DNA of 51,995 bases from Acidimicrobiales bacterium (GTDB lineage Bacteria; Actinomycetota; Acidimicrobiia; Acidimicrobiales; SZUA-35), in assembly GCA_041576015.1 (NCBI GenBank), contig JBFGLT010000003.1, positions 1-51,995 of the forward strand. The letters run 5' to 3'. The stretch's first letter is position 1. Every line of letters starts with the position of its first letter. The notes beneath the pieces are model-generated. The model saw only the letters and a program-made list of their open reading frames with translations, did no database searches and was not told where the DNA came from. Below are positions 15,276 through 45,193 of the stretch, in pieces. The position numbers and the translations under genes are program-made.

Positions 15276-15467
15276 TCAACTACCCGCCGGTTGCTCCACC
15301 TCGGCGTCGTTGCCCGGGAAGAAGATGCTCTCGTGGTCATCCTGCCACCGGACGAGGTACGGCGGACCGCCGTCGTCACCTCGCACCTCCAAAACGAGCG
15401 CCCTTCTCGCCGGCTCGCCCACATGGTGACTGTGCACCACGATGTGATCTCCTACCTTTGCCCGCAT
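15276..15467 (-). CDS. DUF1918 family small protein (Rv0569/Rv2302-like)
   Basis: MRAKVGD...GGPPYLVRW...FFPG pattern; RBS GGAGGA. Confidence 0.85.
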   Translation of the reverse strand: MRAKVGDHIVVHSHHVGEPARRALVLEVRGDDGGPPYLVRWQDDHESIFFPGNDAEVEQPAGS

Positions 15468-15532
15468 GGTCGTTCCTCCTCTCGAAGCAGAATCTCTGCT
15501 GCGATCTCACCCCGATCTTAGGCGTGCGCCGT

Positions 15533-15548
15533 AGGGTCCGATGACCCG
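15533..15548 (-). promoter_or_regulatory. DosR/OsdR-like box upstream of the DUF1918 gene
   Basis: CGGGTCATCGGACCCT (GGGTC-N4-GACCC palindrome). Confidence 0.5.
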
Positions 15549-15613
15549 ATCTCGCGCCGGGAGGTCGATCCGTCGCCCTCGACGAGGTTCGTGCCCGATG
15601 TGAAAGCCGACGC

Positions 15614-16282
15614 TCAGTCGTCCAGGTCTCCGTAGACGTCGGTGTTGCTGTCTCCTTGGCTGATCGGCTCGGTTGCGCTGCGAACTACGCCGACAAGGTT
15701 CGAGACGATCCGTTTGACGTACCGCTGATAGATGGCCCGCGGAACCACCTCGTGGCCAGGGCGATCCGACGTCAAATAGGAATCCATGGTCGTGCGGAGC
15801 TCGTCATTGACCGCCTGCGCACGCGCCGCGAAGTCCTCGATTCGGTCGCCTCCGTGCTGGAGTAGGTCGGCGGCCTCGGTGAAAAGCGAGGAAACCGTAC
15901 GACGCTGAGCGAGCAGCTCATCGATGTCGGGACCGCCGGCGAACGAGACGCCCGCCTCGGCCAGGTCGAGAATGTTCTTGGCCTGATCGCCGATGCGCTC
16001 GATCTTCTTGAGCAGCAGGATGAGCCCGAGCACCTCGCCGATGTCGGTGGCCCCTTGAACTGTGACGTGAACGACCAGCTCTGAACGCAGGTCCTGCTCG
16101 GCACGGTTGATCCGTTCGTCGGTCGCACGAATGTCGTCGGCGACCGCCCGCATGTCACCGCCGGACATCACCGCAGCCGTGGCGAGATCGAACGAGTGGC
16201 GTGCGTCGCTGAGCATCGTCACCGACCTGGCGACCACATGATCGAGCCCGGCCGTGCTCTTTCGGAAGAACGAGAGAACCAT
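15614..16282 (-). CDS. PhoU-domain phosphate uptake regulator
   Basis: DERIN...E and KIERIGDQAKNI PhoU repeat motifs; immediately downstream of the Na/Pi symporter. Confidence 0.8.
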   Translation of the reverse strand: MVLSFFRKSTAGLDHVVARSVTMLSDARHSFDLATAAVMSGGDMRAVADDIRATDERINRAEQDLRSELVVHVTVQGATDIGEVLGLILLLKKIERIGDQAKNILDLAEAGVSFAGGPDIDELLAQRRTVSSLFTEAADLLQHGGDRIEDFAARAQAVNDELRTTMDSYLTSDRPGHEVVPRAIYQRYVKRIVSNLVGVVRSATEPISQGDSNTDVYGDLDD

Positions 16283-16292
16283 CTGTCGACTC

Positions 16293-17435
16293 CTAACGGA
16301 GAAGGGCCACGCCGAAGAGCGGGGCGATGATGAACAAGCCTACGACGTAGGCGAGGGCGAGTGTGCGGCGTTCGACGGCAATCGTTGCCATGCGCTCGGC
16401 GGCGATCACGGGCACGTCGCGAGCCAGAGGGATGACGTAGAGGGTCAAGATGCCGAGCACGTTGAACGTCGTGTGAGCCAGGGCGACGGTGAGGGAATCC
16501 GCGCTCGACGCCGCCATGGCGGCGAGCAGAGCGGTGATGGTGGTGCCCACATTGGCGCCCAGGGTCACGGGATAGGCGTTGCGGAGCGACAGGACACCGG
16601 CGGCCGAGAGCGGAATCAGGATTGAGGTCGTGATGCTCGACGACTGCACCGACACGGTGATCACCAGACCGACCAAGAGGGCGACAGCGCCACCGCCCTT
16701 GCCGAGGATGGCGTTGACCGATTGCTCGATCCGGGCCGCAACCAACTGCTTCATGTTCTTCGTGATGAACGTCAGCGCACCGAGAACGATGACCAGACCC
16801 GACAGCACCATCAGGGTCCCCTGAAGGTTCCCGTCGGCTCCGAGCGCACCCCAGATGTCCTCGATCCACCCAACCGGAGCCTTGACCCAGGCCTTGACCG
16901 GACTCTTCCACTCGGTGCCCGCTGAACCGACCAGCTGCTCGCTCATGCTCTGGGCGATCGACGACACGACGCCGGTGGCCAGCTCGACGGGCAGGAGGAC
17001 TGCGACGGCGAGGACATTGAAGAAGTCGTGCACGGTCGCTGCTGCGAATGCTCGCTTGAACTCCTGTGACTGGCGAACGTGGCCGAGTGAGACCAGCGTG
17101 TTGGTCACGGTCGTGCCGATATTGGCCCCCATGACCATCGGAACTGCGTCGCCGACGCCCAACGCACCGGAAGCCACCAGGCCGACGATGACCGACGTGC
17201 TCGCCGACGACGATTGCACCAGGACCGTCCCGAGGATGCCGATCGAGAGACCGGCGATCGGATTCGACACTGCCGAGAAGAGGCGCTCCTGAGTGTCGGC
17301 CCCCATGATCTTGATCCCCGCCTCCAGCGAGGACACCCCGACCAGGAAGATGTAGATGAGGGCAACGACGAGTGCGGCCCGTACCGCCGGAGGAATTCGG
17401 GCTTCTCTCGATACGTGCGGTGTCTGAAGATCCAT
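16293..17435 (-). CDS. Na+/phosphate symporter (NptA/SLC34 family)
   Basis: Duplicated QSSS motifs and GANIGTT/GANVGTT. Confidence 0.9.
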   Translation of the reverse strand: MDLQTPHVSREARIPPAVRAALVVALIYIFLVGVSSLEAGIKIMGADTQERLFSAVSNPIAGLSIGILGTVLVQSSSASTSVIVGLVASGALGVGDAVPMVMGANIGTTVTNTLVSLGHVRQSQEFKRAFAAATVHDFFNVLAVAVLLPVELATGVVSSIAQSMSEQLVGSAGTEWKSPVKAWVKAPVGWIEDIWGALGADGNLQGTLMVLSGLVIVLGALTFITKNMKQLVAARIEQSVNAILGKGGGAVALLVGLVITVSVQSSSITTSILIPLSAAGVLSLRNAYPVTLGANVGTTITALLAAMAASSADSLTVALAHTTFNVLGILTLYVIPLARDVPVIAAERMATIAVERRTLALAYVVGLFIIAPLFGVALLR

Positions 17436-17541
17436 CAAGTTACTCGTCGGTAGATTCGACAGCCCAGAAGGTACAACACCGAGCGGTCGAACGCCCCCTG
17501 GACAGGGAAGGATTCCCCAGCCATTGGTACCGTCGACGTCG

Positions 17542-20500
17542 ATGGAGCGCGGCTGGCAGTTCTGGATCGATCGGGGCGGCACCTTCACCGACGTGGTGGC
17601 CCTGGAACCAAGTGGCCGGACGCTCACCCACAAACTGCTGTCCGACAACGAACGGCGGTATGCCGATGCCGCCGTGCAGGGCATACGCGATCTGATCGGT
17701 GTCGGTCCCGGCGAGCCGCTTCCGGCCGGCCTGATCGACTCGGTGAAGATGGGGACGACCGTGGCCACCAACGCCCTCCTCGAGCGAAAGGGCGAGCCGT
17801 TGGTGCTGGTGACGACGGTGGGCTTCGCCGACGCCTTGCGCATCGGCTATCAGGCCCGCCCCGACATCTTCGCCCTGGACATCGAGCTCCCCGAGATGCT
17901 CTATGACCGGGTGATCGAGGCCGATGAGCGCCTGGCCGCCGACGGGAGGGTGTTGAAGCCGCTCGATGCCGAGCGGTTGGGTCGGGACCTCCAGGCCGCG
18001 TTCGACGACGGGCTTCGCGCCGTGGCTGTCAACTTCATGCACGGCTACCGCCACCGAGCGCACGAGGCCGAGGCGGCGGCGATCGCCCGGCGTATCGGGT
18101 TCCCTCAAGTGTCGGTGAGCCATGAGATCTCGCCTCTGATGAAACTGGTGTCCCGCGGTGACACCACGGTCGTCGATGGCTATCTCTCTCCGGTGCTACG
18201 CCGGTACGTCGATCGTGTGGCGTCGACGCTCGACGCTGGCGGTGCCGGCCCGACGCTGATGTTCATGCAGTCGAACGGGGGACTGGCCGACGCCCACGCC
18301 TTCCAGGGCAAGGATGCGCTGTTGTCGGGACCGGCCGGCGGTGTGGTCGGGATGGTGCGCACCGCTCGAGCGGCCGGCTACCACCGGCTCATCGGATTCG
18401 ACATGGGTGGGACATCCACCGATGTCTCCCATTTCGCCGGCGAGCTGGAGCGCACCTACGAGACCCAGGTGGCCGGTGTTCGGGTGCGGGCGCCGATGAT
18501 TGACATCCACACGGTGGCCGCCGGCGGTGGGTCGGTTCTCCACTTCGACGGCAGCCGCTTTCGGGTGGGGCCAGACTCCGCCGGCGCTGACCCCGGACCG
18601 GCGTCCTATGGCAACGACGGACCCCTGGCAATCACCGACTGCAACGTCGTGCTCGGCCGGCTGCGCCCGGAGTTCTTCCCCGCGGTCTTCGGTGCGTCGG
18701 GCGACCAACCGCTGGACCTCGGTGTGGTGCGGGCTGGATTCGCCGAGCTGGCATCGCAGATCGAGCAGGCGACCGGTGTCGAGCAGAGCGCCGCATCGGT
18801 CGCCGAGGGGTTCCTCGCCATCGCCATCGAGAACATGGCCAACGCCATCAAGAAGATCTCGGTTCAGCGGGGGCACGACGTCACCGACTACACGCTGGTC
18901 TGCTTCGGGGGAGCCGGCGGCCAGCACGCCTGCGGAGTAGCCGACCGGCTCGGGATGTCTCGCGTTCTGATCCACCCGCATGCCGGTGTCCTGTCGGCGG
19001 TCGGGATCGGTCTGGCCGACGTCCGCAACGTCGTCGACGCTGCGATCGAGTCAGTTCTCGACGCGGGCTCGGTCGCTTCCCTGGAGCCGCGATGGCTGGA
19101 GCTCGAGCGCCAGGGCCGGGCCGTCGTTCTCGGCCAGGGCGTCGCCGCCGCCGACATCGGCATCGCGAGGCGGCTCAATCTGAAGTACGCCGGCTCGGAC
19201 ACGACGCTTCGGGTTCCGGCGGGGAGCGTCGACCAGATCAGCTCGGCGTTCGAGCAGACCCACCGGGCTCGATTCGGGTTCGTCAGCCCCGACACGCCGC
19301 TCGTCATCGAGTCCGTCCAGGTTGAGGTGATCGGAGCCGCCGGCTCGAGCATCGAACCGATCGCGCGCACCACCGATCGGACTCAGTCCCATGCCCGGGT
19401 GGGGCAGTATCCGGTGATCTTCGCCGGCGAGCGCATCGAGACGCCGTTCCTTCGTCGGGACCGACTCGCTCCTGGCGCATCGGTCAGTGGGCCGGCGGTC
19501 GTGCTCGAGGACACCGCGACCACGGTCGTCGAGCCGGGATGGGAAGCCACGGTCACCGAGCTCGGCGACCTCGTGATCGAGCGGGTCGAACCCCTGCCGG
19601 ACCGGGTGGCGATCGGCACGACGGTCGACCCCGTCCAGCTGGAGATCTTCAACAACCTGTTCATGAACATCGCCGAGCAGATGGGTGTCGTGCTGGAGAA
19701 CACCGCGGCGTCGGTGAACATCAAGGAGCGACTCGATTTCAGCTGCGCAGTGTTCGACCCAGGCGGTGACCTGATCGCCAATGCGCCGCACATGCCGGTC
19801 CACCTCGGTTCGATGAGCGAGTCGATCAAGTCGATCATCCGGAACAACCCCCACATGCGACCCGGCGAGGTCTATGTGATGAACGCGCCGTACAACGGCG
19901 GTACCCACCTCCCCGACATCACGGTGATCAAGCCCGTCTTCGATGCCGCCGGGTCGGCGGGGGAGCCGCCGATCTTCTTCGTCGCCTCCCGTGGGCACCA
20001 CGCCGACGTCGGCGGCACGGTGCCCGGCTCCTCGCCGGCCGACTCGACATCGGTCGAACAAGAGGGTGTGCTGCTCGACAACGTGCTCCTCGTCGCCGGC
20101 GACCGGTTCCGGACCGAGGAGATCCGCCGCCTGCTGACCGGCGGGCCCCATCCGGCCCGCAATCCAGAGCAGAACATCGCCGACCTCAAGGCGCAGGTGG
20201 CGGCGTGTGAGAAGGGGATGGCCGAACTTGAACGGGTCATCGAGCACTACGGCCTCGACGTCGTCCACGCCTACATGGGTCACGTGAAGGACAACGCCGA
20301 GGAATCGGTGCGCCGGGTGATCGGCGCCCTGAGCGACAGCTCATTCGCCTACGCGATGGACGACGGCTACCGCGTCGAGGTGGCGATTTCGGTCGACCCC
20401 GACGAGCGGTCGGCCAGGATCGACTTCACCGGCACCAGCTCGACCCATCCGGGCAACTACAACGCCCCGTCGGCCATCGCCCACGCCGCAGTGCTGTACG

Positions 20501-21159
20501 TCTTCCGGTGCCTCGTCGACGACGACATACCACTGAACGCCGGCTGCATGAAACCGATCCGGGTCGTCCTACCCGCCGACAGCATGATCAACCCGTCCTA
20601 CCCGGCGGCGGTGATCGCCGGGAATGTCGAGACCAGTCAGGTGATCGTGGACACGCTCTTCGGGGCGGTCGGTGTCATGGGCGCTGCCCAGGGAACGATG
20701 AACAACTTCATCTGGGGCAACGATCGGCATCAGTACTACGAGACGATCTGCGGAGGGGCGGGGGCGACGGCCGCCGCCGACGGATGTTCTGCCGTCCACA
20801 CCCACATGACCAACAGCAGACTGACCGACCCCGAGGTGCTCGAATGGAGATATCCGGTGGTGCTCGAGACCTTCCATGTGCGAACCGGATCCGGTGGAGC
20901 GGGCTCCCACCGGGGCGGCGACGGGGTGGTCCGCCGCCTTCGCTTCGAGGATTCCATGGAGATCAACGTCCTGGCCGGTCACCGGCGGATCCCGCCCTAC
21001 GGTGCCGCCGGCGGCGCATCGGGCGCCGTCGGCCACACCCGCAAGATCGGCGCCGACGGGACCGTGACCGAGTTCGGGGCTACGGCCCAGACGACCGTGT
21101 CACCCGGTGACCGGTTCGAGATCGAGACGCCCGGCGGAGGAGGATTCGGACGTGGTTGA
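17542..21159 (+). CDS. Fused hydantoinase A/B / ATP-dependent 5-oxoprolinase family enzyme
   Basis: IDRGGTFTD, DMGGTSTDV, NIKERLDFSCA, HMPVHLG, GGTHLPD and ETPGGGG motifs; about 1205 aa. Confidence 0.92.
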   Translation: MERGWQFWIDRGGTFTDVVALEPSGRTLTHKLLSDNERRYADAAVQGIRDLIGVGPGEPLPAGLIDSVKMGTTVATNALLERKGEPLVLVTTVGFADALRIGYQARPDIFALDIELPEMLYDRVIEADERLAADGRVLKPLDAERLGRDLQAAFDDGLRAVAVNFMHGYRHRAHEAEAAAIARRIGFPQVSVSHEISPLMKLVSRGDTTVVDGYLSPVLRRYVDRVASTLDAGGAGPTLMFMQSNGGLADAHAFQGKDALLSGPAGGVVGMVRTARAAGYHRLIGFDMGGTSTDVSHFAGELERTYETQVAGVRVRAPMIDIHTVAAGGGSVLHFDGSRFRVGPDSAGADPGPASYGNDGPLAITDCNVVLGRLRPEFFPAVFGASGDQPLDLGVVRAGFAELASQIEQATGVEQSAASVAEGFLAIAIENMANAIKKISVQRGHDVTDYTLVCFGGAGGQHACGVADRLGMSRVLIHPHAGVLSAVGIGLADVRNVVDAAIESVLDAGSVASLEPRWLELERQGRAVVLGQGVAAADIGIARRLNLKYAGSDTTLRVPAGSVDQISSAFEQTHRARFGFVSPDTPLVIESVQVEVIGAAGSSIEPIARTTDRTQSHARVGQYPVIFAGERIETPFLRRDRLAPGASVSGPAVVLEDTATTVVEPGWEATVTELGDLVIERVEPLPDRVAIGTTVDPVQLEIFNNLFMNIAEQMGVVLENTAASVNIKERLDFSCAVFDPGGDLIANAPHMPVHLGSMSESIKSIIRNNPHMRPGEVYVMNAPYNGGTHLPDITVIKPVFDAAGSAGEPPIFFVASRGHHADVGGTVPGSSPADSTSVEQEGVLLDNVLLVAGDRFRTEEIRRLLTGGPHPARNPEQNIADLKAQVAACEKGMAELERVIEHYGLDVVHAYMGHVKDNAEESVRRVIGALSDSSFAYAMDDGYRVEVAISVDPDERSARIDFTGTSSTHPGNYNAPSAIAHAAVLYVFRCLVDDDIPLNAGCMKPIRVVLPADSMINPSYPAAVIAGNVETSQVIVDTLFGAVGVMGAAQGTMNNFIWGNDRHQYYETICGGAGATAAADGCSAVHTHMTNSRLTDPEVLEWRYPVVLETFHVRTGSGGAGSHRGGDGVVRRLRFEDSMEINVLAGHRRIPPYGAAGGASGAVGHTRKIGADGTVTEFGATAQTTVSPGDRFEIETPGGGGFGRG

Positions 21160-21601
21160 CTACCGGGACCGCTACTTCGAGGACTGGACCGAGGGCGAGA
21201 TCGTCGAATCCGGCCCCCACCTCATGACCGAGGAGCGCATGCGGACCTTCGCCGAGGAGTTCGATCCTCAGCCCTTCCACATCGACCCGGCGGCCGCCGC
21301 CGAGACCCTCTACGGAGGGATCATCGCCAGCGGCTGGCACACCGGTTCGGTGCTGATGCGTCTGCTGGCGACGTTCCTCGGTCCGTCGAGCATGGGATCA
21401 CCGGGCGTCGACAACCTCCGATGGCACCTTCCCGTTCGCCCCGCCGACGTGCTGCGGCTCCGCGTGCATGTACTCGAGAAGAGAGTCTCATCCTCTCGGC
21501 CGGAGCGGGGCATCATCCGCTGGCACCACGACCTGCTGAACCAGCACGATCAGGTCGTGATGTCCCTCGACGCCGTCCTGTTCATCCAGCGGAGGCCCTG
21601 A
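21152..21601 (+). CDS. MaoC-family dehydratase (hot-dog fold)
   Basis: FDPQPFHID and IASGWHT motifs; GTG start after GGAGGAGG, overlapping the previous stop. Confidence 0.88.
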   Translation: MVDYRDRYFEDWTEGEIVESGPHLMTEERMRTFAEEFDPQPFHIDPAAAAETLYGGIIASGWHTGSVLMRLLATFLGPSSMGSPGVDNLRWHLPVRPADVLRLRVHVLEKRVSSSRPERGIIRWHHDLLNQHDQVVMSLDAVLFIQRRP

Positions 21602-22593: not shown

Positions 22594-23402
22594 GCGCGCT
22601 GCTCCCACGCGGTGGCTGCGACACCCACCTCCATTTCTACGATCGGCGATACCCGAGCAGCCCAGCAGCGGTGCTCCACCCGCCCGACGCCTCGGTGGAG
22701 GACTACCGGAGCGTCCAGGCCGAACTCGGTCTCGACCGGCTGGTCGTCGTGCAACCCACGACCTACGGCCTCGACAACTCCTGCCAGCTGGCTGCCCTCG
22801 CTCACTTCGGGGAAGCGGCCCGCGGAGTGATGGTCATCGACGCAGACGCCGTCCCTGCGGAGCTGTCGAGACTCGGCGATGCAGGCGTCCGGGGAGCTCG
22901 GTTCCACATGCTTCCGGGCGGCGCCGTGGGTTGGGATCATCTCGAGCCGGTGGCGGCGCTGATCGCACCCCTCGGCTGGCACATCCAGCTCCAGCTCAAC
23001 GGCCGGGAACTGACCGGCCGGGTTGCCCGTCTCCTGTCGTTGCCGTGCGAGGTGGTGATCGACCACGTCGGACGCTTCATGCCGCCTGTCGAGCTGGACC
23101 ATCCGAGCTTCCAGGCGCTGCTTCGGCTGCTGGACTCGGGCCGGGCCTGGTGCAAGTTGTCGGCTCCGTACGAATCCTCGACCACCGGCCCGCCACATTA
23201 CGCCGATCTCACCCCGCTGGTGGACCATCTCGTCGCCCGCGTCCCCGAGCGCCTGCTGTGGGCGTCGAACTGGCCCCATCCCGGCCAGGCCGACCCGCCG
23301 ACGGCCACCGACCTCGCCGCCTTGCTGGCGCGGTGGCTTCCCGATCCCGACCTGCGTCGGCGGGTGCTGGTCGACAATCCCGCCACCCTCTACGACTACT
23401 GA
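22590..23402 (+). CDS. Amidohydrolase-2 family lactone-acting enzyme (LigI/galactarolactone isomerase-like)
   Basis: CDTHLH, VQPTTYGLDN, DHVG, KLSAPY and WASNWPH motifs; ATGA coupling. Confidence 0.82.
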   Translation: MSALLPRGGCDTHLHFYDRRYPSSPAAVLHPPDASVEDYRSVQAELGLDRLVVVQPTTYGLDNSCQLAALAHFGEAARGVMVIDADAVPAELSRLGDAGVRGARFHMLPGGAVGWDHLEPVAALIAPLGWHIQLQLNGRELTGRVARLLSLPCEVVIDHVGRFMPPVELDHPSFQALLRLLDSGRAWCKLSAPYESSTTGPPHYADLTPLVDHLVARVPERLLWASNWPHPGQADPPTATDLAALLARWLPDPDLRRRVLVDNPATLYDY

Positions 23403-26604: not shown

Positions 26605-26605
26605 G

Positions 26606-29237: not shown

Positions 29238-29253
29238 AGGGCCTTCCTGCCCT
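29238..29253 (+). promoter_or_regulatory. DosR/OsdR-like box
   Basis: AGGGCCTTCCTGCCCT (AGGGC-N6-GCCCT palindrome), with TACACCT 21 nt downstream. Confidence 0.5.
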
Positions 29254-29332: not shown

Positions 29333-30127
29333 GTGGAGACCACCGCGAAGCCAGCCCGTCTCGTTGTCGCCCTCATCGTGATGACGGGAGTGCTCGTGGC
29401 CTGCGGAAGTGGCGATGAATCCTCCGACACGACCACGACCACGACCACGACCGAGGCGACGACATCCACGACCGAGGGGACGACATCGACGACCGAGGCG
29501 ACCACGACCACGACCGAATCGTCGACCAGCACCGAGGCCACGACGTCCCCGTCGGCGGTGACGCTCGACCAGCCGGCCATCGGGCCGGCCGCCGACGTCG
29601 TGTTCACCACCCCGACCGCCGCTGCCGAGGACTTCGTGACCAAGGCGCTCGGGGTGCCCGCCGATCTCGGGGAGTTCATGCAGGGTGACTCCCGCAGCGG
29701 CGAAATGGAGGTGTACTTCCCCGGCGAAGGCGCCAACGCCACCCGGGTTCTCCGGGGCCTTCTCCTTCTACGACAGCTCGGTCCCGAGAGCGGCTGGTTC
29801 GTCCTGGCCGCCGTCAACACCAACGCCGCCATCACCGCACCGGACTCGACGGCCGAGGTGGCGGCGGGACCCCTCACCGTCGAGGGCGTGGGCCGCGGCT
29901 TCGAGGCGACCGTCATCGTCGAGGCGTTCGTGGCCGGACAGGACACGCTGCTCGATCAGGTGGTGACCTCCGGCGGGTCCTTCGAGACCCCCGAACCTTT
30001 CACCGTCACCCTCGACCTGTCCGGGGCCCAACCGGGCGATGTCGTGGGCCTGTTGGTTCGAGGCGGAGTAGGGCTCGAGACCGACCCTGGCGACTTCGGT
30101 GCGATTCCGGTGGTGATCGCCGTCTGA
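29333..30127 (+). CDS. Lipoprotein with Thr-rich linker and C-terminal Gmad2-like immunoglobulin domain
   Basis: Lipobox LVAC, poly-Thr linker and VEGVGRGFEATV segment. Confidence 0.7.
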   Translation: METTAKPARLVVALIVMTGVLVACGSGDESSDTTTTTTTTEATTSTTEGTTSTTEATTTTTESSTSTEATTSPSAVTLDQPAIGPAADVVFTTPTAAAEDFVTKALGVPADLGEFMQGDSRSGEMEVYFPGEGANATRVLRGLLLLRQLGPESGWFVLAAVNTNAAITAPDSTAEVAAGPLTVEGVGRGFEATVIVEAFVAGQDTLLDQVVTSGGSFETPEPFTVTLDLSGAQPGDVVGLLVRGGVGLETDPGDFGAIPVVIAV

Positions 30128-36541: not shown

Positions 36542-36641
36542 CGTCGGGTCGCTCGGGGGACGGTTGCGAGAAGACTCCCCGGTGCCATCCTGATCGTACT
36601 GGTGGGCGGCGTCGCTTGGTCCTAGTTCTCATTCGTCGAGA

Positions 36642-36657
36642 CGGGCCTATGGTCTCT
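36642..36657 (+). promoter_or_regulatory. DosR/OsdR-like box
   Basis: CGGGCCTATGGTCTCT; core matches GGGACTWWAGTCCC at 11/14 positions; AAGCAT follows after 22 nt. Confidence 0.45.
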
Positions 36658-36719
36658 TCCCTCCCCGGCTGTGTCGCAGAAGCATGAGAGTGGGCCCATG
36701 AAGCGGCGACAGGAGGTCG

Positions 36720-37487
36720 ATGTCGACAATGGCAACCAAGCTGGGTGGTCGGGTCGTGGCGTTGTGCGCGATCGGGACGCTGGTGGTGACGATCGCCAGC
36801 GCCTGCACGGTCGATGTCAAGATCGGCGGTGACGAGCTCACCGGTTCCGGCGTTCGGGAGACCAGGACCTTCGATCTGGCCGGCTTCGACCGGGTCGACG
36901 TGTCTCACACGTTCACAGCTGTGATCACCGTCGAGGCGGGCGGCGATCATCTTGTCGAGGTCACCGCCGACGACAACTTTTTCGACGCCGTGGAGGTGGA
37001 GGTTCGCGACTCGACGCTGCACATCGGGTTCGAGGACAGCGTCAACATCCGAAGCGACGAGCGGCCAGAGGCCATCGTGGTGGTTCCGGGCCTCTCGGGC
37101 GTGACCGGGTCGGGCGCATCTGCGCTCACGGTGGTGGCGTCCGGGACGGCGATCCATGACGTCGAGCTGAGCGGAGCGAGCACCCTCACCGCCGGGGGGC
37201 TGGCCGGCGCGGCGATGACCGTGGAGGCAAGTGGCGCCAGCACGATGACACTCGAGGGATCGGCGACCTCGGTCGAGCTCGGGGTGTCCGGCGCGTCGTC
37301 GGCGGATCTCGCAGGCCTGGTGATCGATCGTGCGAGGGTCGAGGTGTCCGGAGCCTCTCGGGTCGAGTTCGGAACGGCGCAGGCGGTGTCCGGCGACGTG
37401 TCGGGCGCGTCGACGGTCACCCTCGACGAGCGTACGATCGCCGACCTGGATGTGTCGGGCGCATCGACCGTGCGCCGCAGCTCCTGA
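36720..37487 (+). CDS. GIN-domain (DUF2807) beta-helix lipoprotein
   Basis: Lipobox ASAC and repeated SGAS units about every 19 aa; RBS AGGAGG. Confidence 0.8.
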   Translation: MSTMATKLGGRVVALCAIGTLVVTIASACTVDVKIGGDELTGSGVRETRTFDLAGFDRVDVSHTFTAVITVEAGGDHLVEVTADDNFFDAVEVEVRDSTLHIGFEDSVNIRSDERPEAIVVVPGLSGVTGSGASALTVVASGTAIHDVELSGASTLTAGGLAGAAMTVEASGASTMTLEGSATSVELGVSGASSADLAGLVIDRARVEVSGASRVEFGTAQAVSGDVSGASTVTLDERTIADLDVSGASTVRRSS

Positions 37488-37584: not shown

Positions 37585-37605
37585 CGGGCCATCGAAGGGA
37601 TCGCC

Positions 37606-38832: not shown

Positions 38833-38874
38833 CCATCTCCGGTCGTCCCCACCCGTGGGCGTTCACGTACCGAG

Positions 38875-38918
38875 GGTGACCTCGGACCCTGGGGCCGGGT
38901 GGAGCGGTCGCGTATCGT
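38875..38918 (+). promoter_or_regulatory. DosR/OsdR-like box plus -10 element (leaderless promoter)
   Basis: GGTGACCTCGGACCCT, 22 nt, TATCGT, 6 nt, ATG. Confidence 0.55.
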
Positions 38919-38924
38919 GCAGCC

Positions 38925-40427
38925 ATGGCGCCAGGAGTCGACAAGACCGGCCGTGAGCGCGAACTCAAACTGCTCGTCGACGAGGGGTTCGACGTTCCCG
39001 AGCTCGACGGCATCTTCAGGGGTGCGGAGCTCGGCGAACCCGAAGTCATCCGAAACGTCGACCGCTACTTCGACACCGCCGACCTGGCGCTCGCCCGCTG
39101 GGGGTGCACGGTCCGCCATCGCCGGGGCGAGGGGTGGACGGTGAAGATCGCCAAGCCGTCGAGCGGTCCGATTCTCGACCGGGAGGAGGTGGTCATTCCC
39201 GGCGAGGACGGCGAGCCGCCCTCCTCGGCGGTCGCCGTGGTCGCCCCGCTTCTCGCCGGACGGTTGCTCGAACCGGTCACCATGCTCGTCACCGACCGAG
39301 TTCGGCGCCGCTGGCGGGACTCCGACGGCCGGGTCGTCGCCGAGCTGGTGGACGATCAGGTGGCGGCAACCGGCCCCGCCGAGATCGAGCGGTTTCGCGA
39401 AATCGAGGTCGAACTGAAGGCTGAGAACGCAGAGCTGAAGGATCTGCGTCGGGCTGCCGAGGCGTTCGTCGCCGCCGGCGCTCGGCGAGGTGCTCCGGCG
39501 CCCAAGCTCGTGCGAACCCTGGGCCGGACGGCGGCAGGCGATCCCGATGTGCCGGAGCCCTCGATCGGCTCGAGTCCGACAGCCGAGGATGTCATCCGGG
39601 CGGCCGTGGCGACATCGGTACGGCGCTACCTCCTCTTCGCTCCCTCGGCCATCGTCGGCGCCGATCCCGAAGGTGTCCACCAGGCCCGGGTCTCGAGTCG
39701 CCGGCTCCGTTCGGATCTCAAGACATTCGGCCCGCTGCTCGACCCCGGCTGGAGAGACGAGGTGATCGCCCGGGCCAAAACGGTGACCGACCTGCTGGGC
39801 GCCGTCCGCGACGCCGACGTACTCGACACCAAGCTCCGCGATCTGCTGGCCAACCATCCCGAGATCGATCCGGCCGCCGGCGCCCTTCTCGAACGACTGG
39901 CCGGCCAGCGCCGGGCGGCCCGTTCCTCGATGGTCGACGGCCTGACCGGACCGGCCGGAGCCGCACTGTCGCACTACCTGATCGAGGTGGCTCGCGACCC
40001 GAGGGTTCTGCCGGCCGCCGACCGGCGAGCCAAGTCGACGATGGGGAGGCTCGTGCGCAAGCGGTGGAGGCGGCTCGAGTCCGCCGTCGAAGCCCTGGGT
40101 CGGGAACCCGCACCGGCCGAGCTGCACCAGGTTCGGATCCTCGCCAAGCGGGTCCGCTACGCCGCCGAGGCGGTCGTTCCTGCGCTCGGCCGTCCCGCTC
40201 GGCGGTTCACCAAGCAGGCGGCCCGGATCCAGGACGCCCTCGGCGAGCTGAACGATGCCGCCGTCGCCGCCCTCTGGCTGGGGCAGGCGGCCGAGCAACT
40301 CGGGGGGCGGGGTGCCTTCGCCGCCGGCCAGATCGCTCAGCAGCTGATGGCCGACGCCCTCGTCCACGAGGGCGACTGGCGGCAGGCCTACCAGAAGATG
40401 ACCAAGCTCACCGGCTGGATGAACTGA
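38925..40427 (+). CDS. CYTH + CHAD domain protein (polyphosphate/triphosphate-related)
   Basis: ERELK and EIEVE (CYTH); HQARV..RRLRS, HQVRI..KRVRY and QDALGELND (CHAD). Confidence 0.88.
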   Translation: MAPGVDKTGRERELKLLVDEGFDVPELDGIFRGAELGEPEVIRNVDRYFDTADLALARWGCTVRHRRGEGWTVKIAKPSSGPILDREEVVIPGEDGEPPSSAVAVVAPLLAGRLLEPVTMLVTDRVRRRWRDSDGRVVAELVDDQVAATGPAEIERFREIEVELKAENAELKDLRRAAEAFVAAGARRGAPAPKLVRTLGRTAAGDPDVPEPSIGSSPTAEDVIRAAVATSVRRYLLFAPSAIVGADPEGVHQARVSSRRLRSDLKTFGPLLDPGWRDEVIARAKTVTDLLGAVRDADVLDTKLRDLLANHPEIDPAAGALLERLAGQRRAARSSMVDGLTGPAGAALSHYLIEVARDPRVLPAADRRAKSTMGRLVRKRWRRLESAVEALGREPAPAELHQVRILAKRVRYAAEAVVPALGRPARRFTKQAARIQDALGELNDAAVAALWLGQAAEQLGGRGAFAAGQIAQQLMADALVHEGDWRQAYQKMTKLTGWMN

Positions 40428-40460
40428 GCCCGGCCGGCGATCACGCCGGGGGCCCGGTGC

Positions 40461-41609
40461 TCAGTAGCGGAGGATCGCTCCGAGCGGTCCGATCCCGGGA
40501 ACCTCCGAAGCGGGAACGACGTAGACGCTCCCCCCGTGCACCAACGTCTCGATGGCGGCGGTGTCGAACAGATCGCAATCGCCGGGCTGGCGTTCGCCGT
40601 GGCGTTCGACGACCTGCTGATCGGCCTCGAAGACGCCCCAGCGCCGGAGGCCGTCGGGCACGAAGAGCGTCTGGACCCGACCGTTGGCCGCCGCCGGGAG
40701 GACCTCGTCGAGGATCGACAGTGTCGAAGTGGCGGCGGCGTGGAACCGTTCGACGGCCAGAGCTCGATCTCCGAAGACCACCGGTTCGACGATCGGCCAT
40801 GCCCTGGTGTGGAGATCCTCGTTGCTCATGCGATCCGGGTTCCCCTCGATCCCCTCGCCGACGATGCGGGGATAGCGGGAGGCCTGCCGGTAGTAGGCCT
40901 GCACAAACTCCACCCCGGCCAGGACCAGCGGGCTCGACGTATCGGTGATGATGCTGTTGACGCCGTCGTCCACCATCCGGAGGAACCGCACCAGGTCGGA
41001 CTTGGAGGTGTCCTTCACGACCCCGTGGCCGTGAAAGGTGGCCTGCACCCGGCCGCGACCCACGCGCGACGCACCATGGCTCTGCAACTGACGTTCACGG
41101 TCGTCGAACCGGAGGGCGCTCTCCAGACTTCCGGGCATGTCCTCGACCTCCAGCTCGCTGACCTGGGTACGGTTTCCGCGAAGGAGGCGTATCGAGTGCT
41201 GACTGAGAGCTAGGAGGTAGTAGGTGCGATCCCCCGCGGCGGCCGGAATCAGCGGCTTCACATGGAAACGGTCGGCGGTGACGACCAGCTCGTCGACCGA
41301 GTTCGGCAGCCGGAACATGTCGATGGAATCGGGCGTCACAAGGATCGCCAGGCCGGTTTCGACGTGTGCCCAGAACCGGGCATCGGCGAGCAGTCCGGTG
41401 ACCGGCGCCATGAACTCGGTGATCTGGGTCTCGGTGAGCCCGAGTTGTTCGAGCTCCTTGGCAGCGGTCGCTGCGAGGTTCTTGAGTCGAATCGGGTCCT
41501 GGGACTGATCCGGGCCCGCCCGGTGGGTTGGAAGGAAGATCGAAACGCAGTGGGTGGCGCTGGTGCCGGCGAGTCGCTGTAGGTCGCTGGTCGTGATGTT
41601 GTCGAGCAT
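40461..41609 (-). CDS. Bacterial archaeo-eukaryotic release factor (baeRF) homologue, Balon/Rv2629-like
   Basis: CVSIFLPTH, IRLKNL, RFHVKPL, FHGHG, PLVLAG, GRVQTLF and GAILRY motifs; no GGQ; RBS AAGGAGG. Confidence 0.8.
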   Translation of the reverse strand: MLDNITTSDLQRLAGTSATHCVSIFLPTHRAGPDQSQDPIRLKNLAATAAKELEQLGLTETQITEFMAPVTGLLADARFWAHVETGLAILVTPDSIDMFRLPNSVDELVVTADRFHVKPLIPAAAGDRTYYLLALSQHSIRLLRGNRTQVSELEVEDMPGSLESALRFDDRERQLQSHGASRVGRGRVQATFHGHGVVKDTSKSDLVRFLRMVDDGVNSIITDTSSPLVLAGVEFVQAYYRQASRYPRIVGEGIEGNPDRMSNEDLHTRAWPIVEPVVFGDRALAVERFHAAATSTLSILDEVLPAAANGRVQTLFVPDGLRRWGVFEADQQVVERHGERQPGDCDLFDTAAIETLVHGGSVYVVPASEVPGIGPLGAILRY

Positions 41610-41657
41610 CGGGCCTCCTTGATCTGGCCGTTCGCGCTTGCATTCAGATCCTTGCCG

Positions 41658-41768
41658 ATCGTCGGCCGGTTCGCACGTGCCGTGCAGGGTCGAACGACAG
41701 GAACTCGGTCCACGCGTCGGGCGAAAGGACCTTGTACTCCTGCGCTCCGGTCCGGATCCGGGGATCAT
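41658..41768. promoter_or_regulatory. Divergent promoter region with two DosR-like boxes
   Basis: Minus strand: CCTGTCGTTCGACCCT (41701-41686), 22 nt, GACGAT. Plus strand: AAGGACCTTGTACTCC (41725-41740), 22 nt, GATCAT. Confidence 0.4.
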
Positions 41769-41788
41769 CGCACCAGAAGGAGGGACTG

Positions 41789-42322
41789 ATGCGAGCATTG
41801 ATCGTCTACGAGTCCATGTTCGGGAACACCCATCTGATCGCCGACAGGATCGGAGAGGGGCTGGCTCCCGCGTTCGAGGTGGACGTCAGAACGGTGGCCG
41901 ATGCGGCCGGTGTCGACGTTTTCGGTGTCGATCTGCTCGTGGTGGGCGGGCCGACCCACATGCACGGGATGTCCAATGCCAGGTCCCGTGAGTCGGCTCG
42001 CGAGACCGCCGAGGAGGACGACACCCTCGATCTCGACGTCGCCGCCGAGGGCCCCGGTCTCCGGCAGTGGCTCGACGACCTGGAGCGAGGTCAGGACACG
42101 GCGGCGGCGGCGTTCGACACCCGCGTGCACGGTCCGGCGCTGCTCACCGGCCGGGCCGCCAAGGGCATCGCCCGTCGCCTGGAACACCACGGCTTCACCC
42201 TCATCGCCGATCCCGAGAGCTTTCTGGTCGACTCCGACAGCCGACTCTTGGAGGGCCAGGACGACCGGGCGCTCCACTGGGGCGCTGAGCTCGCCAGGAT
42301 CCACACGGCCGAGATGGCCTGA
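41789..42322 (+). CDS. Flavodoxin-domain protein
   Basis: VYESMFGNT, VGGPTH and AAFDTR motifs; RBS AAGGAGG. Confidence 0.85.
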   Translation: MRALIVYESMFGNTHLIADRIGEGLAPAFEVDVRTVADAAGVDVFGVDLLVVGGPTHMHGMSNARSRESARETAEEDDTLDLDVAAEGPGLRQWLDDLERGQDTAAAAFDTRVHGPALLTGRAAKGIARRLEHHGFTLIADPESFLVDSDSRLLEGQDDRALHWGAELARIHTAEMA

Positions 42323-42326
42323 GGGA

Positions 42327-42370
42327 AGCGACTTCGGACCCTAGGCAGGCCCGAACACGCAGCGTCCACT
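42327..42370 (+). promoter_or_regulatory. DosR/OsdR-like box plus -10-like element (leaderless promoter)
   Basis: AGCGACTTCGGACCCT, 22 nt, TCCACT, 6 nt, ATG; identical geometry to 38875-38925. Confidence 0.55.
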
Positions 42371-42376
42371 GATCCC

Positions 42377-45193
42377 ATGCTGGGGTTCGGTGCCGGTGAC
42401 CGCTTGAATCCCACCGACGCCACCCTGTGGGAGATCAAGCGGGACCCGATACTGCGCACCACCATCGTGGCCGTCGCCCTTCTCGATCGGTCGCCCGACT
42501 GGGCTCGATTGCAGAGCACGGTGGTCCGCTCGGTCGAAGCTCTCCCTCGCCTCCGGCAGCGGGTCCACGACGGGCCGCTCGGCTTCGGTCGGCCGCTGTG
42601 GGTGGACGCCCATCCCGAGATGGCGTTCCACCTCCGGCGGGTCAAGGCGCCCACTACCGGTTCGCTGCGGGACGTTCTCGACATCGGTGGCGTCCTGGCC
42701 AGCCAGGAGTTCGACGCGCTCCGGCCCATGTGGGAGATCGAGTTGGTCGATGGGCTCGCCCACGGCCGGGCCGCTCTCCTGCTCAAGGTCAGCCACGCCC
42801 TGACCGACGGCATCGGCGGAGTCGCCTTGCTCCGCGCCTTCGACGACCGCTCCGGGCCCACTGCCCTCGCAGAGCTTCAGACGGCGCAGTTGCACCATGA
42901 GACCCCGACCCTCGAGTTCTTGGCGGGTGTGGTCCGGACGCCGGTCGATCTGTTCTCGATCGCCCTCGGCGCTGGACTTCACCCGTTTCAGACCATTGGC
43001 TCAGTGGTCGGTCTGGCCGGTTCAGCGGTGCGATTGTTGTCCCCGGCCGGACCGCCGTTGTCGTCCCTGATGATCGATCGAAGCGTGGACCGGTGGCTGG
43101 GCGCCACCGACGTGTCGCTCGAGGCGTTTCATCGGGCCGCCCAACGGGCCGGCGGGACGATCAACGACGCGTTCGTGACGATCGCCATCGCGGCACTCGC
43201 CGACCATCACCGTCGGTTCGGTGCTGACGACCGGCGATTCCGCATCACCATGCCGGTGAGCTTCCGGGCTCCTGACGACATCGTCGCCGGAAACCAGTGG
43301 ACGCCGGCTCGGGTGGTGCTGGACGTCCATCCCAATCGCCACCCCTACGATCAACTGCGGCGCCACCGGAGCCGCCTGCGCTCGGCCGCCCACGAGCCGG
43401 CGATCGGGATCAGCCAGCGCCTGGCCGCCGCACTCCAGCAGCTTCCGTCGGCCCTGACGGTCGGCATCGTCGCCGGCATGGTCAAGGGCTGCGATGCTGC
43501 TCTGACCGATGTGCCCGGAATGCAGGACCCTTTGACGATCGCCGGCGCCTCGGTCCACCGCCTCTACCCGTTCGCTCCCGCCGGTGGCGCCGCGCTGAAC
43601 ATCGGCTTGATGTCCCACGTCGAGTCGGCGTGCGTCGGGTTCAACGTCGACCGAGCCGCCGTCCCCGAACCAGCCGAGCTGGTCGCCCGTTTCGACGAGC
43701 GGCTCCACAATTTCCTTCGCCGCAGGCGACGCCGAGCCACCGCCGAAGTCGAGGACAGCGAGGCGGCCGGGCCATTCGTCGCCGAGCGATTGAGCGCTCT
43801 GGACACCAGCTTCCTGCGGATGGAGTCCGAGCGAACCCCGATGCACATGGGCGGGCTGTTCGTGATCGACGGTCGGAGTCTTCTCGCCGACGACGGCACG
43901 TTCGACATCGAGGCCGTTCGTCGCCATGTCGCCGAGCGGATCGCCGCCGCGCCCCGGCTTCACAAAGCCGTCAAGGAGACGCAGTTCGAGCTGGCCCGGC
44001 CCCGTTGGGTCGACGTCGACGGGCTCGACATCAACCACCACGTCGAGCACCTTCAGCTGCCTTCCCCGGGGAGTCGGGAGCAGCTGCTCGAAGCGTGCGA
44101 GGAGGTGCAGATGCGACGATTGCGTCGAGACCGGCCGCTGTTCTCCTTCACGTTCATCACCGGCCTCGATCCGGTCGAGTTCGGCACGGGTGCGGTGGCG
44201 CTAGTCGAGCGGATCCACCACGCCCTCCTCGATGGAGTCTCCGGTGTGGAGTTGCTGGCGGTCCTGTTCGACCCAACCCGGGAACCGGGTCCGAGCCCTG
44301 CGACCGAACAGCCTGAACCAGCGAGCGGTCGACCGGGCCGATCCCAACGCACGGTTGCCTCGGCGCTCGCCGAACAACTCCACGAGCCGGTCGAGATCGT
44401 GAGGCTCGGCCTCGATGCGATCCGCCACCCGCGGCGCACCGCCGACCGTATTCAGGCCGTGGCCGGGGCGCTGGACGACGCCGCTTCCAGCTTCGGCGGC
44501 GGGACGTCGTCCCTGCACACCCCGGTCGGCCGGCACCGAAGGCTGCTGCCGCTCACCTTCGACCTCGGTGCGGTGCACGCAACGGCCAACGCCCTCGGAG
44601 GAACGGTCAATGATCTCGTGCTGACGGCGTTGACCGAGGGGTTGCGGGCGCTCGTCGCCGAACGTGGCGAGCCCACCGATCGAGCGTTCCACGCCCTGGT
44701 ACCGGTTTCCACTCGACAGGCCGGGATGGACGCCCAATCGGGCAACAAGGTGGCGGCCCTCCTGGTGGAACTGCCGGTGAACGTGTCCGAACCGGCAGCC
44801 GCCTTCGCCGCAGTACGCGACCAGATGGTGATGCTCAAGACCGAGCATCACGCCGAAGGCGTTGAACTACTGCTCGATGCGGGCAACCATCTCCCGGCCG
44901 TTGCCGTGGACCTCATTTCGTGGATCACCCGGCGTCAGCCCTTCGCCGACCTCGTGGCCACCAACCTGCCGGGACCGCCGTTGCCCTTGTACTTCCGGGG
45001 TTGCCCGATCACCGAGATGGTGCCCATCGTGCCCCTCGGCTTCAACCTGACCGTGAGCGCTGCCACCTTGTCCTACGCCGGCGAGTTGGTGGTGGCCCTG
45101 CGGGCCGACCCCGATGCCTGCCCTGATCTTGACATCTTCGCCGAGGCCATCATCGGAGCCATGGAGCAGCTGATGGCGTCGGCCGCTGCCTGA
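42377..45193 (+). CDS. Tandem double-domain wax ester synthase/diacylglycerol acyltransferase (WS/DGAT)
   Basis: Two full modules, each starting with RL...D and containing GGT(I/V)ND and GN motifs; active-site motifs SHALTDG and HHALLDG. Confidence 0.88.
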   Translation: MLGFGAGDRLNPTDATLWEIKRDPILRTTIVAVALLDRSPDWARLQSTVVRSVEALPRLRQRVHDGPLGFGRPLWVDAHPEMAFHLRRVKAPTTGSLRDVLDIGGVLASQEFDALRPMWEIELVDGLAHGRAALLLKVSHALTDGIGGVALLRAFDDRSGPTALAELQTAQLHHETPTLEFLAGVVRTPVDLFSIALGAGLHPFQTIGSVVGLAGSAVRLLSPAGPPLSSLMIDRSVDRWLGATDVSLEAFHRAAQRAGGTINDAFVTIAIAALADHHRRFGADDRRFRITMPVSFRAPDDIVAGNQWTPARVVLDVHPNRHPYDQLRRHRSRLRSAAHEPAIGISQRLAAALQQLPSALTVGIVAGMVKGCDAALTDVPGMQDPLTIAGASVHRLYPFAPAGGAALNIGLMSHVESACVGFNVDRAAVPEPAELVARFDERLHNFLRRRRRRATAEVEDSEAAGPFVAERLSALDTSFLRMESERTPMHMGGLFVIDGRSLLADDGTFDIEAVRRHVAERIAAAPRLHKAVKETQFELARPRWVDVDGLDINHHVEHLQLPSPGSREQLLEACEEVQMRRLRRDRPLFSFTFITGLDPVEFGTGAVALVERIHHALLDGVSGVELLAVLFDPTREPGPSPATEQPEPASGRPGRSQRTVASALAEQLHEPVEIVRLGLDAIRHPRRTADRIQAVAGALDDAASSFGGGTSSLHTPVGRHRRLLPLTFDLGAVHATANALGGTVNDLVLTALTEGLRALVAERGEPTDRAFHALVPVSTRQAGMDAQSGNKVAALLVELPVNVSEPAAAFAAVRDQMVMLKTEHHAEGVELLLDAGNHLPAVAVDLISWITRRQPFADLVATNLPGPPLPLYFRGCPITEMVPIVPLGFNLTVSAATLSYAGELVVALRADPDACPDLDIFAEAIIGAMEQLMASAAA

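Follow-up and report, generated by a model that had tools for sequence, protein, structure and literature searches.

A DosR/DevR-like box with fixed promoter geometry and its candidate dormancy regulon in an Acidimicrobiales genome

The stretch of 51,995 nucleotides that is analysed here, in the following called the window, is contig C3 of the draft genome of an Acidimicrobiales bacterium (assembly GCA_041576015.1, contig JBFGLT010000003.1; 2.998 Mb on 204 contigs, 67.6% GC). A preliminary description had marked seven copies of a 16-bp box in it, upstream of genes for a DUF1918 protein, two lipoproteins (one with a GIN domain), a CYTH-CHAD protein, a baeRF protein, a flavodoxin and a WS/DGAT protein, and had read them as part of a dormancy regulon of the DosR/OsdR type. 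Judged from sequence comparison, the box is real as a motif, by which a DosR/DevR-like regulator would recognise its sites, and it stands at a fixed distance before many stress genes. It is highly probable that a regulator of the DosR/DevR type operates on this box and activates a dormancy-type programme. Four parts of this statement are inferred: binding of the box by this regulator, its activating role, leaderless transcripts, and hypoxia as the signal. The seven sites differ much in strength.

Enrichment of the box between genes

Genome-wide the motif reads approximately WGGGWCNWWNGWCCCW and forms a 16-bp imperfect palindrome, WGGGWC-N4-GWCCCW. Genes were called with a simple picker of open reading frames based on codon bias, which gave 2809 genes and left 7.3% of the genome intergenic. 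The 9-mer TCGGACCCT, which is common to three boxes of the window, occurs 37 times, 12 times between genes where 2.7 would be expected if the copies were evenly spread, and a matrix iterated from its sites ended in a motif close to WGGGACNTYGGWCCCT. Circularity was avoided by using two matrices that contain no window sites: matrix 1 was made from 14 sites outside the window, matrix 2 from 11 other genomes, each of which contributed the highest-scoring box ahead of its orthologue of the regulator, with zero sites from this genome. Matrix 2 finds 18 intergenic and 16 coding sites at scores of at least 12, the latter corresponding to 1.3 when scaled to the intergenic length, and 11 intergenic against 4 coding sites (scaled 0.3) at scores of at least 13. 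With matrix 1, 27 intergenic sites (training sites included) face 11 coding ones (scaled 0.8) at scores of at least 12, and 20 first-order Markov simulations gave a mean of 4.3. The C at position 6 and the G at position 11 are about 80% conserved. An enumeration of perfect palindromes (5-mer dyads with spacers of 0-10 nt) did not recover the box, because it is too degenerate for such a search.

The regulator

A DosR-like regulator, which the preliminary description had left to be sought, is encoded elsewhere in the genome:

Contig C176, locus L012, about 519-1163: DevR-like regulator (Pfam Response_reg E 1e-22, GerE E 7e-19)

It is a NarL-family protein of a REC and a GerE domain, and its nearest solved relative is DevR of Mycobacterium tuberculosis (3c3w, E 7e-63), followed by VraR (2e-44); counted by us on the alignment, it agrees with DevR at roughly half of the aligned residues. 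In the recognition helix, the stretch FLAEKTVKNYVS-LLAKLGM differs from DevR by one substitution, and the Asp in DVAV-DVRL is aligned as well. We take Lys179, Lys182 and Asn183 of DevR to be the residues that contact DNA, and Asp54 to be the phospho-acceptor.

The operon of the regulator has one of the best boxes of the genome at its upstream side (C176 358; scores 17.4 and 18.4). The regulator gene is followed by the genes of a PAS-GAF-HisKA_3 protein, a CBS-pair protein and universal stress proteins (USPs). A search for orthologues of the regulator was positive for 9 of 10 genomes of the genus and for 15 of 18 of the family, and a box scoring at least 13 lies within 300 nt upstream of the orthologue at 12 of 13 same-family loci and at one of five same-order loci. 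One of these relatives has the box AGGGACTTTAGTCCCT, which contains the mycobacterial core. The presence of the box at this place is plain, and the regulator presumably controls its own operon through it.

Fixed promoter geometry

Of 51 oriented site-gene pairs scoring at least 11, 19 have a NANNNT hexamer exactly 22 nt past the box, whereas each of the other 39 offsets between 5 and 44 has 0-4 of them, about 1.3 on average. In 10 of the 51 pairs the distance from the end of the box to the called start is exactly 34 nt, and the starts were called without knowledge of the box. The full layout is the box, 22 nt, the hexamer, 6 nt and the start codon, so that the last T of the hexamer stands at -7 from the first base of the start codon. 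Enrichment and positional bias, the lack of which would have refuted the preliminary description, are hence both present genome-wide, and also in relatives. When the whole layout is searched as one pattern (relaxed core of the box, 23 nt, NANNNT, 6 nt, RTG), 21 genomes yield 55 matches, of which 49 come from the 20 relatives; the reversed pattern has 5, and a pattern with the spacer lengthened by 3 nt has 6, with 10 for its own reversed control. In this genome alone, the strict pattern GGGWC-N4-GWCCC occurs once at the right spacing, a count too small to be used.

Two boxes (C18 8615-8630 and C46 12864-12879) lie midway between divergent genes and have, in either direction, a hexamer of the TA type at 22 nt and a start codon at 34 nt. 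One is shared by a DUF1706 gene and a gene for a PALP enzyme, the other by genes for a Rieske protein and a cytochrome c, and from their layout both look like bidirectional leaderless promoters with a single operator. A -35 element of an alternative sigma factor was considered for the box as well, and was ruled out, as the palindromic box functions whichever way it faces, at these two promoters among others.

At low scores the hexamer at offset 22 is not enriched (8 of 152 in the bin 6-7 against a mean of 4.9, and 5 of 123 in the bin 7-8 against 3.9). This, the 67.6% GC of the genome, and the fact that the lipoprotein and flavodoxin boxes of the window fall into these low bins, the former without conservation, would suit the view that the seven boxes are chance near-matches in GC-rich DNA and that there is no regulon at all. 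Such an explanation is nevertheless extremely improbable, as it is at odds with the intergenic enrichment found by an independently trained matrix, with the sharp peaks at the offsets 22 and 34, with the boxes kept before orthologues and with the coherent functions of the targets. Chance is excluded for the box as a class, not for the two weakest sites.

One box of high score (C53 7498; scores 15.2 and 12.7) is separated by no more than 11 nt from the called start of the gene for pyruvate:ferredoxin oxidoreductase (PFOR), which is a misfit with the geometry of an activator. Either the start is miscalled or the site works differently.

The seven sites of the window

The seven strings are all found at the positions and on the strands first given for them, each occurring once, and Pfam confirms all gene families that had been named. 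In the following rows the two scores are those of matrix 1 and matrix 2.

15276..15467, minus strand: DUF1918 protein, 63 aa (Pfam DUF1918 E 3e-28)
15533..15548, read on the minus strand: DUF1918 box CGGGTCATCGGACCCT, scores 12.0 / 7.6, probable
29238..29253: Gmad2 string AGGGCCTTCCTGCCCT, scores 7.3 / 7.1, unsupported as a site
29333..30127, plus strand: Gmad2-domain protein (Pfam), a lipoprotein
36642..36657: GIN/DUF2807 box CGGGCCTATGGTCTCT, scores 9.6 / 12.5, probable
36729..37487, plus strand: GIN-domain (DUF2807) protein (Pfam DUF2807 E 9e-24)
38875..38890: CYTH-CHAD box GGTGACCTCGGACCCT, scores 12.9 / 9.4, strong in this genome
38925..40427, plus strand: CYTH-CHAD protein, 500 aa (Pfam CHAD E 1e-47, CYTH E 2e-9)
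40461..41609, minus strand: baeRF protein (Pfam baeRF_family7 E 5e-44)
41686..41701, read on the minus strand: baeRF box CCTGTCGTTCGACCCT, scores 9.8 / 5.8, possible
41725..41740: flavodoxin box AAGGACCTTGTACTCC, scores 6.9 / 8.0, weak
41789..42322, plus strand: flavodoxin-like protein (Pfam Flavodoxin_1 E 4e-7)
42327..42342: WS/DGAT box AGCGACTTCGGACCCT, scores 13.0 / 12.5, strong
42365..42370, plus strand: -10-like hexamer TCCACT, 22 nt past the WS/DGAT box and 6 nt before the ATG
42377..45193, plus strand: two-module WS/DGAT protein (tgs-like), 938 aa (WS_DGAT_cat E 6e-92 in two stretches, WS_DGAT_C E 3e-41)

As a class the boxes are beyond chance, but site by site only about half of the seven can be distinguished from it. 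The genome has 72 intergenic sites that score at least 9.5, and five of them are in the window, where 1.5 would be expected (Poisson P 0.02). All five hexamers that had been pointed out at 22 nt are there (TATCGT, GACGAT, GATCAT, AAGCAT and TCCACT), and the first four fit NANNNT while TCCACT does not. It is also true that two boxes end 34 nt before an ATG, and these belong to the two genes with the strong sites, those of the WS/DGAT and the CYTH-CHAD protein.

From the end of the WS/DGAT box to the ATG at 42377 there are 34 nt. Full-length orthologues of this gene in the relatives G008 and G009 (58-59% identity) have a box that ends exactly 34 nt before the ATG and TGCACT at offset 22, with diverged sequence in the spacer, so that the position of the odd hexamer TCCACT is kept in both. 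In three more genomes, paralogues with a single module carry boxes at 35-36 nt from the start, and altogether 5 of the 14 WS/DGAT loci scanned in relatives have a box at most 40 nt from the start. The transcript is predicted to be leaderless. The protein has two complete WS/DGAT modules, and among the 20 relatives full-length counterparts are found only in G008 and G009; elsewhere among them, WS/DGAT matches span one module. The CYTH-CHAD box is followed at offset 22 by TATCGT (38913-38918) and at offset 34 by the ATG, and a leaderless transcript is predicted also here; none of four distant homologues (35-48% identity) has the box conserved.

The boxes of the DUF1918 and GIN genes are probable. 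The DUF1918 protein has Rv2302 (2a7y, E 4e-11) as its nearest solved structure, and its box sits 65 nt upstream of the gene; boxes scoring 11.3-13.7 are found 55-112 nt upstream of four of six homologues in relatives, two of them at 64 nt. Offset 22 is occupied by GTGAGA, which is no NANNNT, and a canonical TAAGAT stands at offset 12. The GIN box has AAGCAT at offset 22 (36680-36685) and a weak second match 26 bp upstream (36616-36631, score 8.5), and there is no box before either of two GIN homologues in relatives.

Possible sites are those of the baeRF and flavodoxin genes. The baeRF box has GACGAT at offset 22 on the minus strand (41658-41663), and of the 36 oriented instances in its score bin (9-10), 4 have the hexamer at this offset, where the other offsets average 1.08. 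The flavodoxin box, with GATCAT at offset 22 (41763-41768), is weak and, if taken alone, indistinguishable from chance; between it and the baeRF box there are 39 bp, a spacing that recurs in the divergent pair of genes for a hibernation-promoting factor (HPF) and a Na_Ca_ex protein on contig C23. The sole solved relative of the baeRF protein is chain 8rd8_B (residues 10-382 against 5-369, that is over the full length, E 1e-14), which we take to be Balon. Judged by this match, the baeRF protein of the window is a Balon homologue. The entry 8RD8 is mentioned in the paper on Balon (PMC10901736), which also states, in line with the preliminary description, that Rv2629 is a Balon homologue, and further that it is induced by hypoxia and that Balon genes are often neighbours of RaiA and RtcB genes. 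No baeRF orthologue at E of at most 1e-30 is found in the 20 relatives and no flavodoxin homologue at E of at most 1e-10 in five same-genus genomes, and the nearest relatives of the baeRF protein in the genome collection are proteins of metagenome-assembled genomes (MAGs) from other phyla with 34-40% identity. As such counterparts are lacking (0/20 and 0/5) and the nearest Balon relatives are in distant MAGs, the DNA from 40461 to 42322 with the Balon-like and flavodoxin genes may have been acquired. The MAGs in question are labelled Desulfobacterales, Pelotomaculum and Dehalogenimonas.

The string before the Gmad2 lipoprotein gene is unsupported. It has ACACCT at offset 22, which is no NANNNT, and none of three orthologues of the gene (56-61% identity) has a box scoring at least 8. 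Of the dormancy programme as first proposed, the regulon is supported, while its surface-lipoprotein arm is left with the GIN gene alone and the baeRF and flavodoxin boxes are weak.

Genes of the putative regulon

Pfam was run on the genes at and around box-bearing loci, and the following were found boxed:

regulator operon; CBS-pair gene (box ends 34 nt before the start)
tandem-USP operons with an AAA_33 protein; HSP20; PfkB
PRTase-hydrolase divergent from archease; RtcB
long HPF divergent from a Na/Ca exchanger
pyruvate phosphate dikinase (PPDK); PFOR; malic enzyme
GH65 / trehalose-phosphatase pair; pyridoxamine-oxidase-family protein
nitroreductase operon (weak box, 34-nt geometry); P-type ATPase island
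Rieske/cytochrome c genes; cysteine-synthesis genes; ABC transporters

Genes of the usp and acg type with the same box had been named as something to look for, and both USP genes and genes of a nitroreductase operon are among the boxed ones. We take Rv0569 to be a DUF1918 protein, Rv0571c a PRTase-hydrolase and Rv2004c an AAA_33 protein. By family assignment, the boxed gene set parallels the mycobacterial DevR regulon in many entries. Table 1 of PMC3177182 has as DevR promoters those of Rv0569, Rv0571c, ctpF, Rv2005c, otsB, Rv2623, Rv2626c and Rv2628-2631, and further those of tgs1, Rv3131, Rv3134c-devRS, Rv0079 and hspX-pfkB; the three M. tuberculosis targets quoted in the preliminary description (Rv0569, Rv2629 and tgs1) are all contained therein, Rv2629 as part of the Rv2628-Rv2631 operon.

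The same sites could in principle be read by another protein, and a regulator of the CRP/FNR family acting in class II position, or a different one of the LuxR type, might bind the box or some of its sites. Class II sites of CRP/FNR proteins are likewise centred near -41.5, two HTH_Crp_2 genes of the genome are above the Pfam cut-off, and the CRP-type motif TGTGA-N6-TCACA resembles GTGAC-N4-GTCAC, to which some boxes come near in that GTG replaces GGG in 18 of 82 half-sites and in both halves of 2 of 41 sites. However, GGG and GTG half-sites mix independently (14, 11 and 2 observed against 15.2, 11.0 and 2.0 expected), which argues for one regulator rather than for two classes of sites. The conserved C6 and G11 are needless in a CRP-type site, the box precedes the DevR-like regulator in 12 of 13 same-family genomes, in one of them with a GTG half-site, and every box of the window has a CCC or GGG half. 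Even with the overlap that has been reported between a CRP-family regulator and the DosR regulon (PMC4705688), it is improbable that the box belongs to such a regulator. Two intergenic sites of high score, C71 1062 and C26 12825, have GTG in both halves (GTGTC...GTCAC type) and could be CRP/FNR-type sites rather than DosR boxes.

Sensors and signal

The sensor gene adjacent to the regulator (L012:1156-2325 on contig C176) encodes a PAS-GAF-HisKA_3 protein of 389 aa that stops before any ATPase domain. Its counterpart in G009 (L043:327-1541, 404 aa) is likewise without an ATPase domain according to Pfam, and in G008 an open frame of matching length (403 aa) lies downstream of the regulator. The similar length here, in G009 and at the same place in G008 suggests that the ATPase-less sensor is a real truncated form. 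In more distant relatives the sensor frames beside the regulator are longer. The PAS domain has the haem domains of FixL and DosP as its best solved matches (E 1e-10), and one histidine is aligned with the FixL histidine that presumably is the haem ligand. A second sensor, on contig C23, is boxed and has the architecture PAS-HisKA_3-HATPase; its PAS domain matches the haem domain of FixL (E 4e-24) and its ATP-binding domain matches DosT/DevS (3zxq, 3zxo; E 1e-10), to which the resemblance is confined to this domain. The tandem-GAF architecture of DosS/DosT is in neither of these two sensors, which is a statement on the two proteins, as no genome-wide search for a GAF-GAF kinase was made. The sensors are predicted to be of the FixL type with haem-PAS domains instead of haem-GAF proteins like DosS/DosT.

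The unusual sensors, PAS-GAF-DHp and PAS-DHp-ATPase instead of anything DosS/DosT-like, are also a reason to consider that the regulon is of the DosR type but answers to redox state, NO/CO, light or nutrients, or that the regulator represses. Relatives of the regulator are known in other roles: the Streptomyces orthologue OsdR also controls development (PMC5069765), and PolR of Microlunatus is reported to be mainly active aerobically, on polyphosphate genes (PMC6754071). For repression one may cite the DUF1918 box, which is only 12 nt from the canonical TAAGAT. But both PAS domains match haem oxygen-sensor domains of FixL/DosP best (E 4e-24 and 1e-10), targets such as PFOR, PPDK, malic enzyme, USPs, HSP20 and HPF fit to oxygen limitation, and a box over the -35 region combined with poor -10 hexamers fits to activation. 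A different signal or a repressing regulator is therefore rather unlikely, although of the explanations weighed here it is not the least plausible one.

Proposed mechanism

In the mechanism that we favour, activation by a DosR/DevR-type regulator, a dimer of the regulator would bind the 16-bp imperfect palindrome. At most targets the box ends 22 nt before the -10 hexamer and would hence lie over the -35 region, for which an activator of the class II type is most likely. At many targets the start codon comes 6 nt past the hexamer and 34 nt past the box, be it ATG or GTG, and this distance points to leaderless mRNAs. The input would come from the predicted FixL-like haem-PAS sensors, not from haem-GAF proteins like DosS/DosT, and the signal may be oxygen or a related gas. 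To the output would belong long HPF, RtcB/archease and possibly Balon for ribosome hibernation and RNA repair, the WS/DGAT protein for neutral-lipid synthesis, USPs, HSP20 and CBS-pair proteins, the fermentative or anaplerotic enzymes PFOR, PPDK, malic enzyme and PfkB, and here also the CYTH-CHAD protein.

Some observations speak against this interpretation and have to be set beside the evidence for it. The two matrices order the window sites differently, and the gene starts rest on a crude in-house caller. Among the 41 intergenic sites of highest score, 23 are without NANNNT at offset 22, and the boxes of the regulator itself and of DUF1918 belong to these, so that the 22-nt geometry is common and not universal. 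The regulator's neighbouring sensor is devoid of an ATPase domain. When the surroundings of 37 primary sites are compared, no offset of 8-70 nt gathers three or more tandem secondary matches scoring at least 5 on either side, a negative result to be read with the fact that secondary sites in M. tuberculosis are very degenerate and the matrix may miss sites of this kind. Finally, only 2 of 9 USP genes have a box scoring at least 9 within 250 nt, compared to 166 of 2697 genes overall; with operon partners and the weak C176 3355 box, which has the 34-nt geometry, the number is 5 of 9, a count made post hoc.

More tentatively, and with somewhat less than even confidence, the system may be regarded as a DosR regulon that has been rewired at both ends. 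The input would consist of FixL-type haem-PAS proteins for oxygen, namely the PAS-GAF-DHp protein beside the regulator, which has no kinase domain and is kept at this place in the three closest genomes, and the boxed PAS kinase with its DosT-like ATPase domain. The output would run over largely uniform leaderless class-II promoters, including single boxes that drive two divergent leaderless genes, and accessory or recently acquired genes would possibly have been recruited to it. If this were true, Balon, the CYTH-CHAD protein and the two-module WS/DGAT protein would link ribosome hibernation, polyphosphate and wax/triacylglycerol storage to oxygen in sediment Acidimicrobiia.

Further observations

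Next to the WS/DGAT gene there is a gene on the minus strand that was overlooked by the gene caller (45194-47149, with an open frame down to 44867; 652-760 aa), the open frame of which extends as far as 327 nt into the WS/DGAT gene at its 3' end. Its GC contents at the three codon positions (0.71/0.49/0.82) are like those of real genes and it has no Pfam family; in the protein atlas it falls among clusters of hypothetical proteins, about 680-705 aa long, of Chloroflexota and Actinomycetota, and there are weak leads to M1/M61 peptidases. Scans of the window for Rfam families and tRNAs gave no matches.

The dyads GCAAC-N7-GTTGC, CAACC-N5-GGTTG and AACCC-N3-GGGTT are strongly intergenic (8 against 3, 7 against 2 and 5 against 2 coding copies) and appear to be one longer palindrome, GCAACCC-N3-GGGTTGC, which may be an operator or a repeat. 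Another dyad, CGAAC-N4-GTTCG, has 7 intergenic and 7 coding copies and, as we assume, resembles the actinobacterial LexA box.

Near-identical DNA (at least half of the sampled words) is found in runs of three studies labelled as soil, marine and sediment metagenomes, and one of the three may be the source sample.

Significance

DosR regulons have been studied mainly in mycobacteria and, under the name OsdR, in Streptomyces. A full-text search found no paper that combines DosR with Acidimicrobiia, and no report on FixL or haem-PAS together with DosR in actinobacteria was found in the parts of the literature that were accessible. It appears that the operator, the autoregulation, the promoter position and much of the gene content have been kept in a distant, uncultured actinobacterial lineage, and the box and its targets could serve as a sequence-readable marker set for responses to oxygen limitation and dormancy in metagenomes. 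HPF, RtcB/archease and possibly Balon would be placed under one stress regulator outside the mycobacteria, and haem-PAS and haem-GAF sensors are suggested to be interchangeable inputs to a conserved regulator. The 22/34-nt geometry offers clean candidates for activator-dependent leaderless promoters and for bidirectional promoters with a single operator.

Comparison with known systems

With the DevR-DevS/DosT system of M. tuberculosis, the system described here shares the closest solved regulator, a recognition helix that is only one residue apart, and a boxed regulator operon. The palindrome is built on GGGAC...GTCCC as in M. tuberculosis, and one relative has exactly AGGGACTTTAGTCCCT. Common target families are USPs, HSP20 proteins like HspX, CBS-pair proteins like Rv2626c, pfkB and tgs, and also the trio Rv2629-2631 (Balon/archease/RtcB), an HPF like Rv0079 and a nitroreductase. 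For M. tuberculosis a distance of 33-34 nt is given between the proximal Dev box and the transcription start as mapped, and the ATG of fdxA is 35 nt away from its box (PMC3177182), which gives the 34-nt leaderless arrangement a precedent; the spacing here (22 nt to the -10-like hexamer, 34 nt to the start) may differ from the mycobacterial counts by a base or two, as the boxes there are taken as 18-20 bp. Different are the sensors, which here are FixL-like haem-PAS proteins, the adjacent one without ATPase domain, and tandem boxes, which are called a hallmark of DevR promoters in M. tuberculosis (PMC3177182), have not been detected here as pairs of primary and secondary boxes. Moreover, positions 5 and 12 of the box are W and position 3 tolerates T, the leaderless 34-nt geometry is common, and the lineage is Acidimicrobiia and not Mycobacteriales. 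Extra targets in comparison with M. tuberculosis are the CYTH-CHAD gene, PFOR, malic enzyme, a cysteine-synthesis operon and the Rieske/cytochrome c genes.

With FixL-FixJ, the oxygen-sensing two-component system of rhizobia, the system shares the sensor domain, since the haem-PAS domain of FixL is the best solved match for both sensors. FixJ is also a response regulator of the LuxR type. The second sensor differs from FixL by its DosT/DevS-like ATP-binding domain and HisKA_3, and the regulator here is DevR-like, with FixJ absent from its 36 solved matches.

PolS-PolR of Microlunatus phosphovorus is similar in that PolR is DevR-like (76% identity to DevR) and linked to polyphosphate (PMC6754071), which is echoed by the boxed CYTH-CHAD gene here. 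However, the site of PolR is a direct repeat, GTTCAC-N5-GTTCAC, its sensor PolS is of the GAF-GAF type, and its targets are ppk, ppgk, pit and pstS (PMC6754071), none of which was found boxed here.

OsdR-OsdK of Streptomyces coelicolor also has a 16-nt palindrome, AGGGCCGATCGGCCCT, which had been quoted correctly in the preliminary description and was likewise derived from the upstream regions of orthologues (PMC5069765). As here, the regulator gene is boxed, USP genes are clustered around it, and PPDK and a gene of the pyridoxamine-phosphate-oxidase family are targets (PMC5069765). The OsdR box prefers GGGCC/GGCCC, OsdR has the additional role in development mentioned above, and a fixed leaderless geometry was not found reported in the accessible part of the same paper; OsdK is DevS/DosT-like (41-42% identity). 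The system of this genome departs from the mycobacterial one in two features, haem-GAF sensors, as judged from its two sensors described above, and detectable tandem boxes, and by most of the criteria compared at the level of sequence it belongs with the DevR/OsdR regulons.

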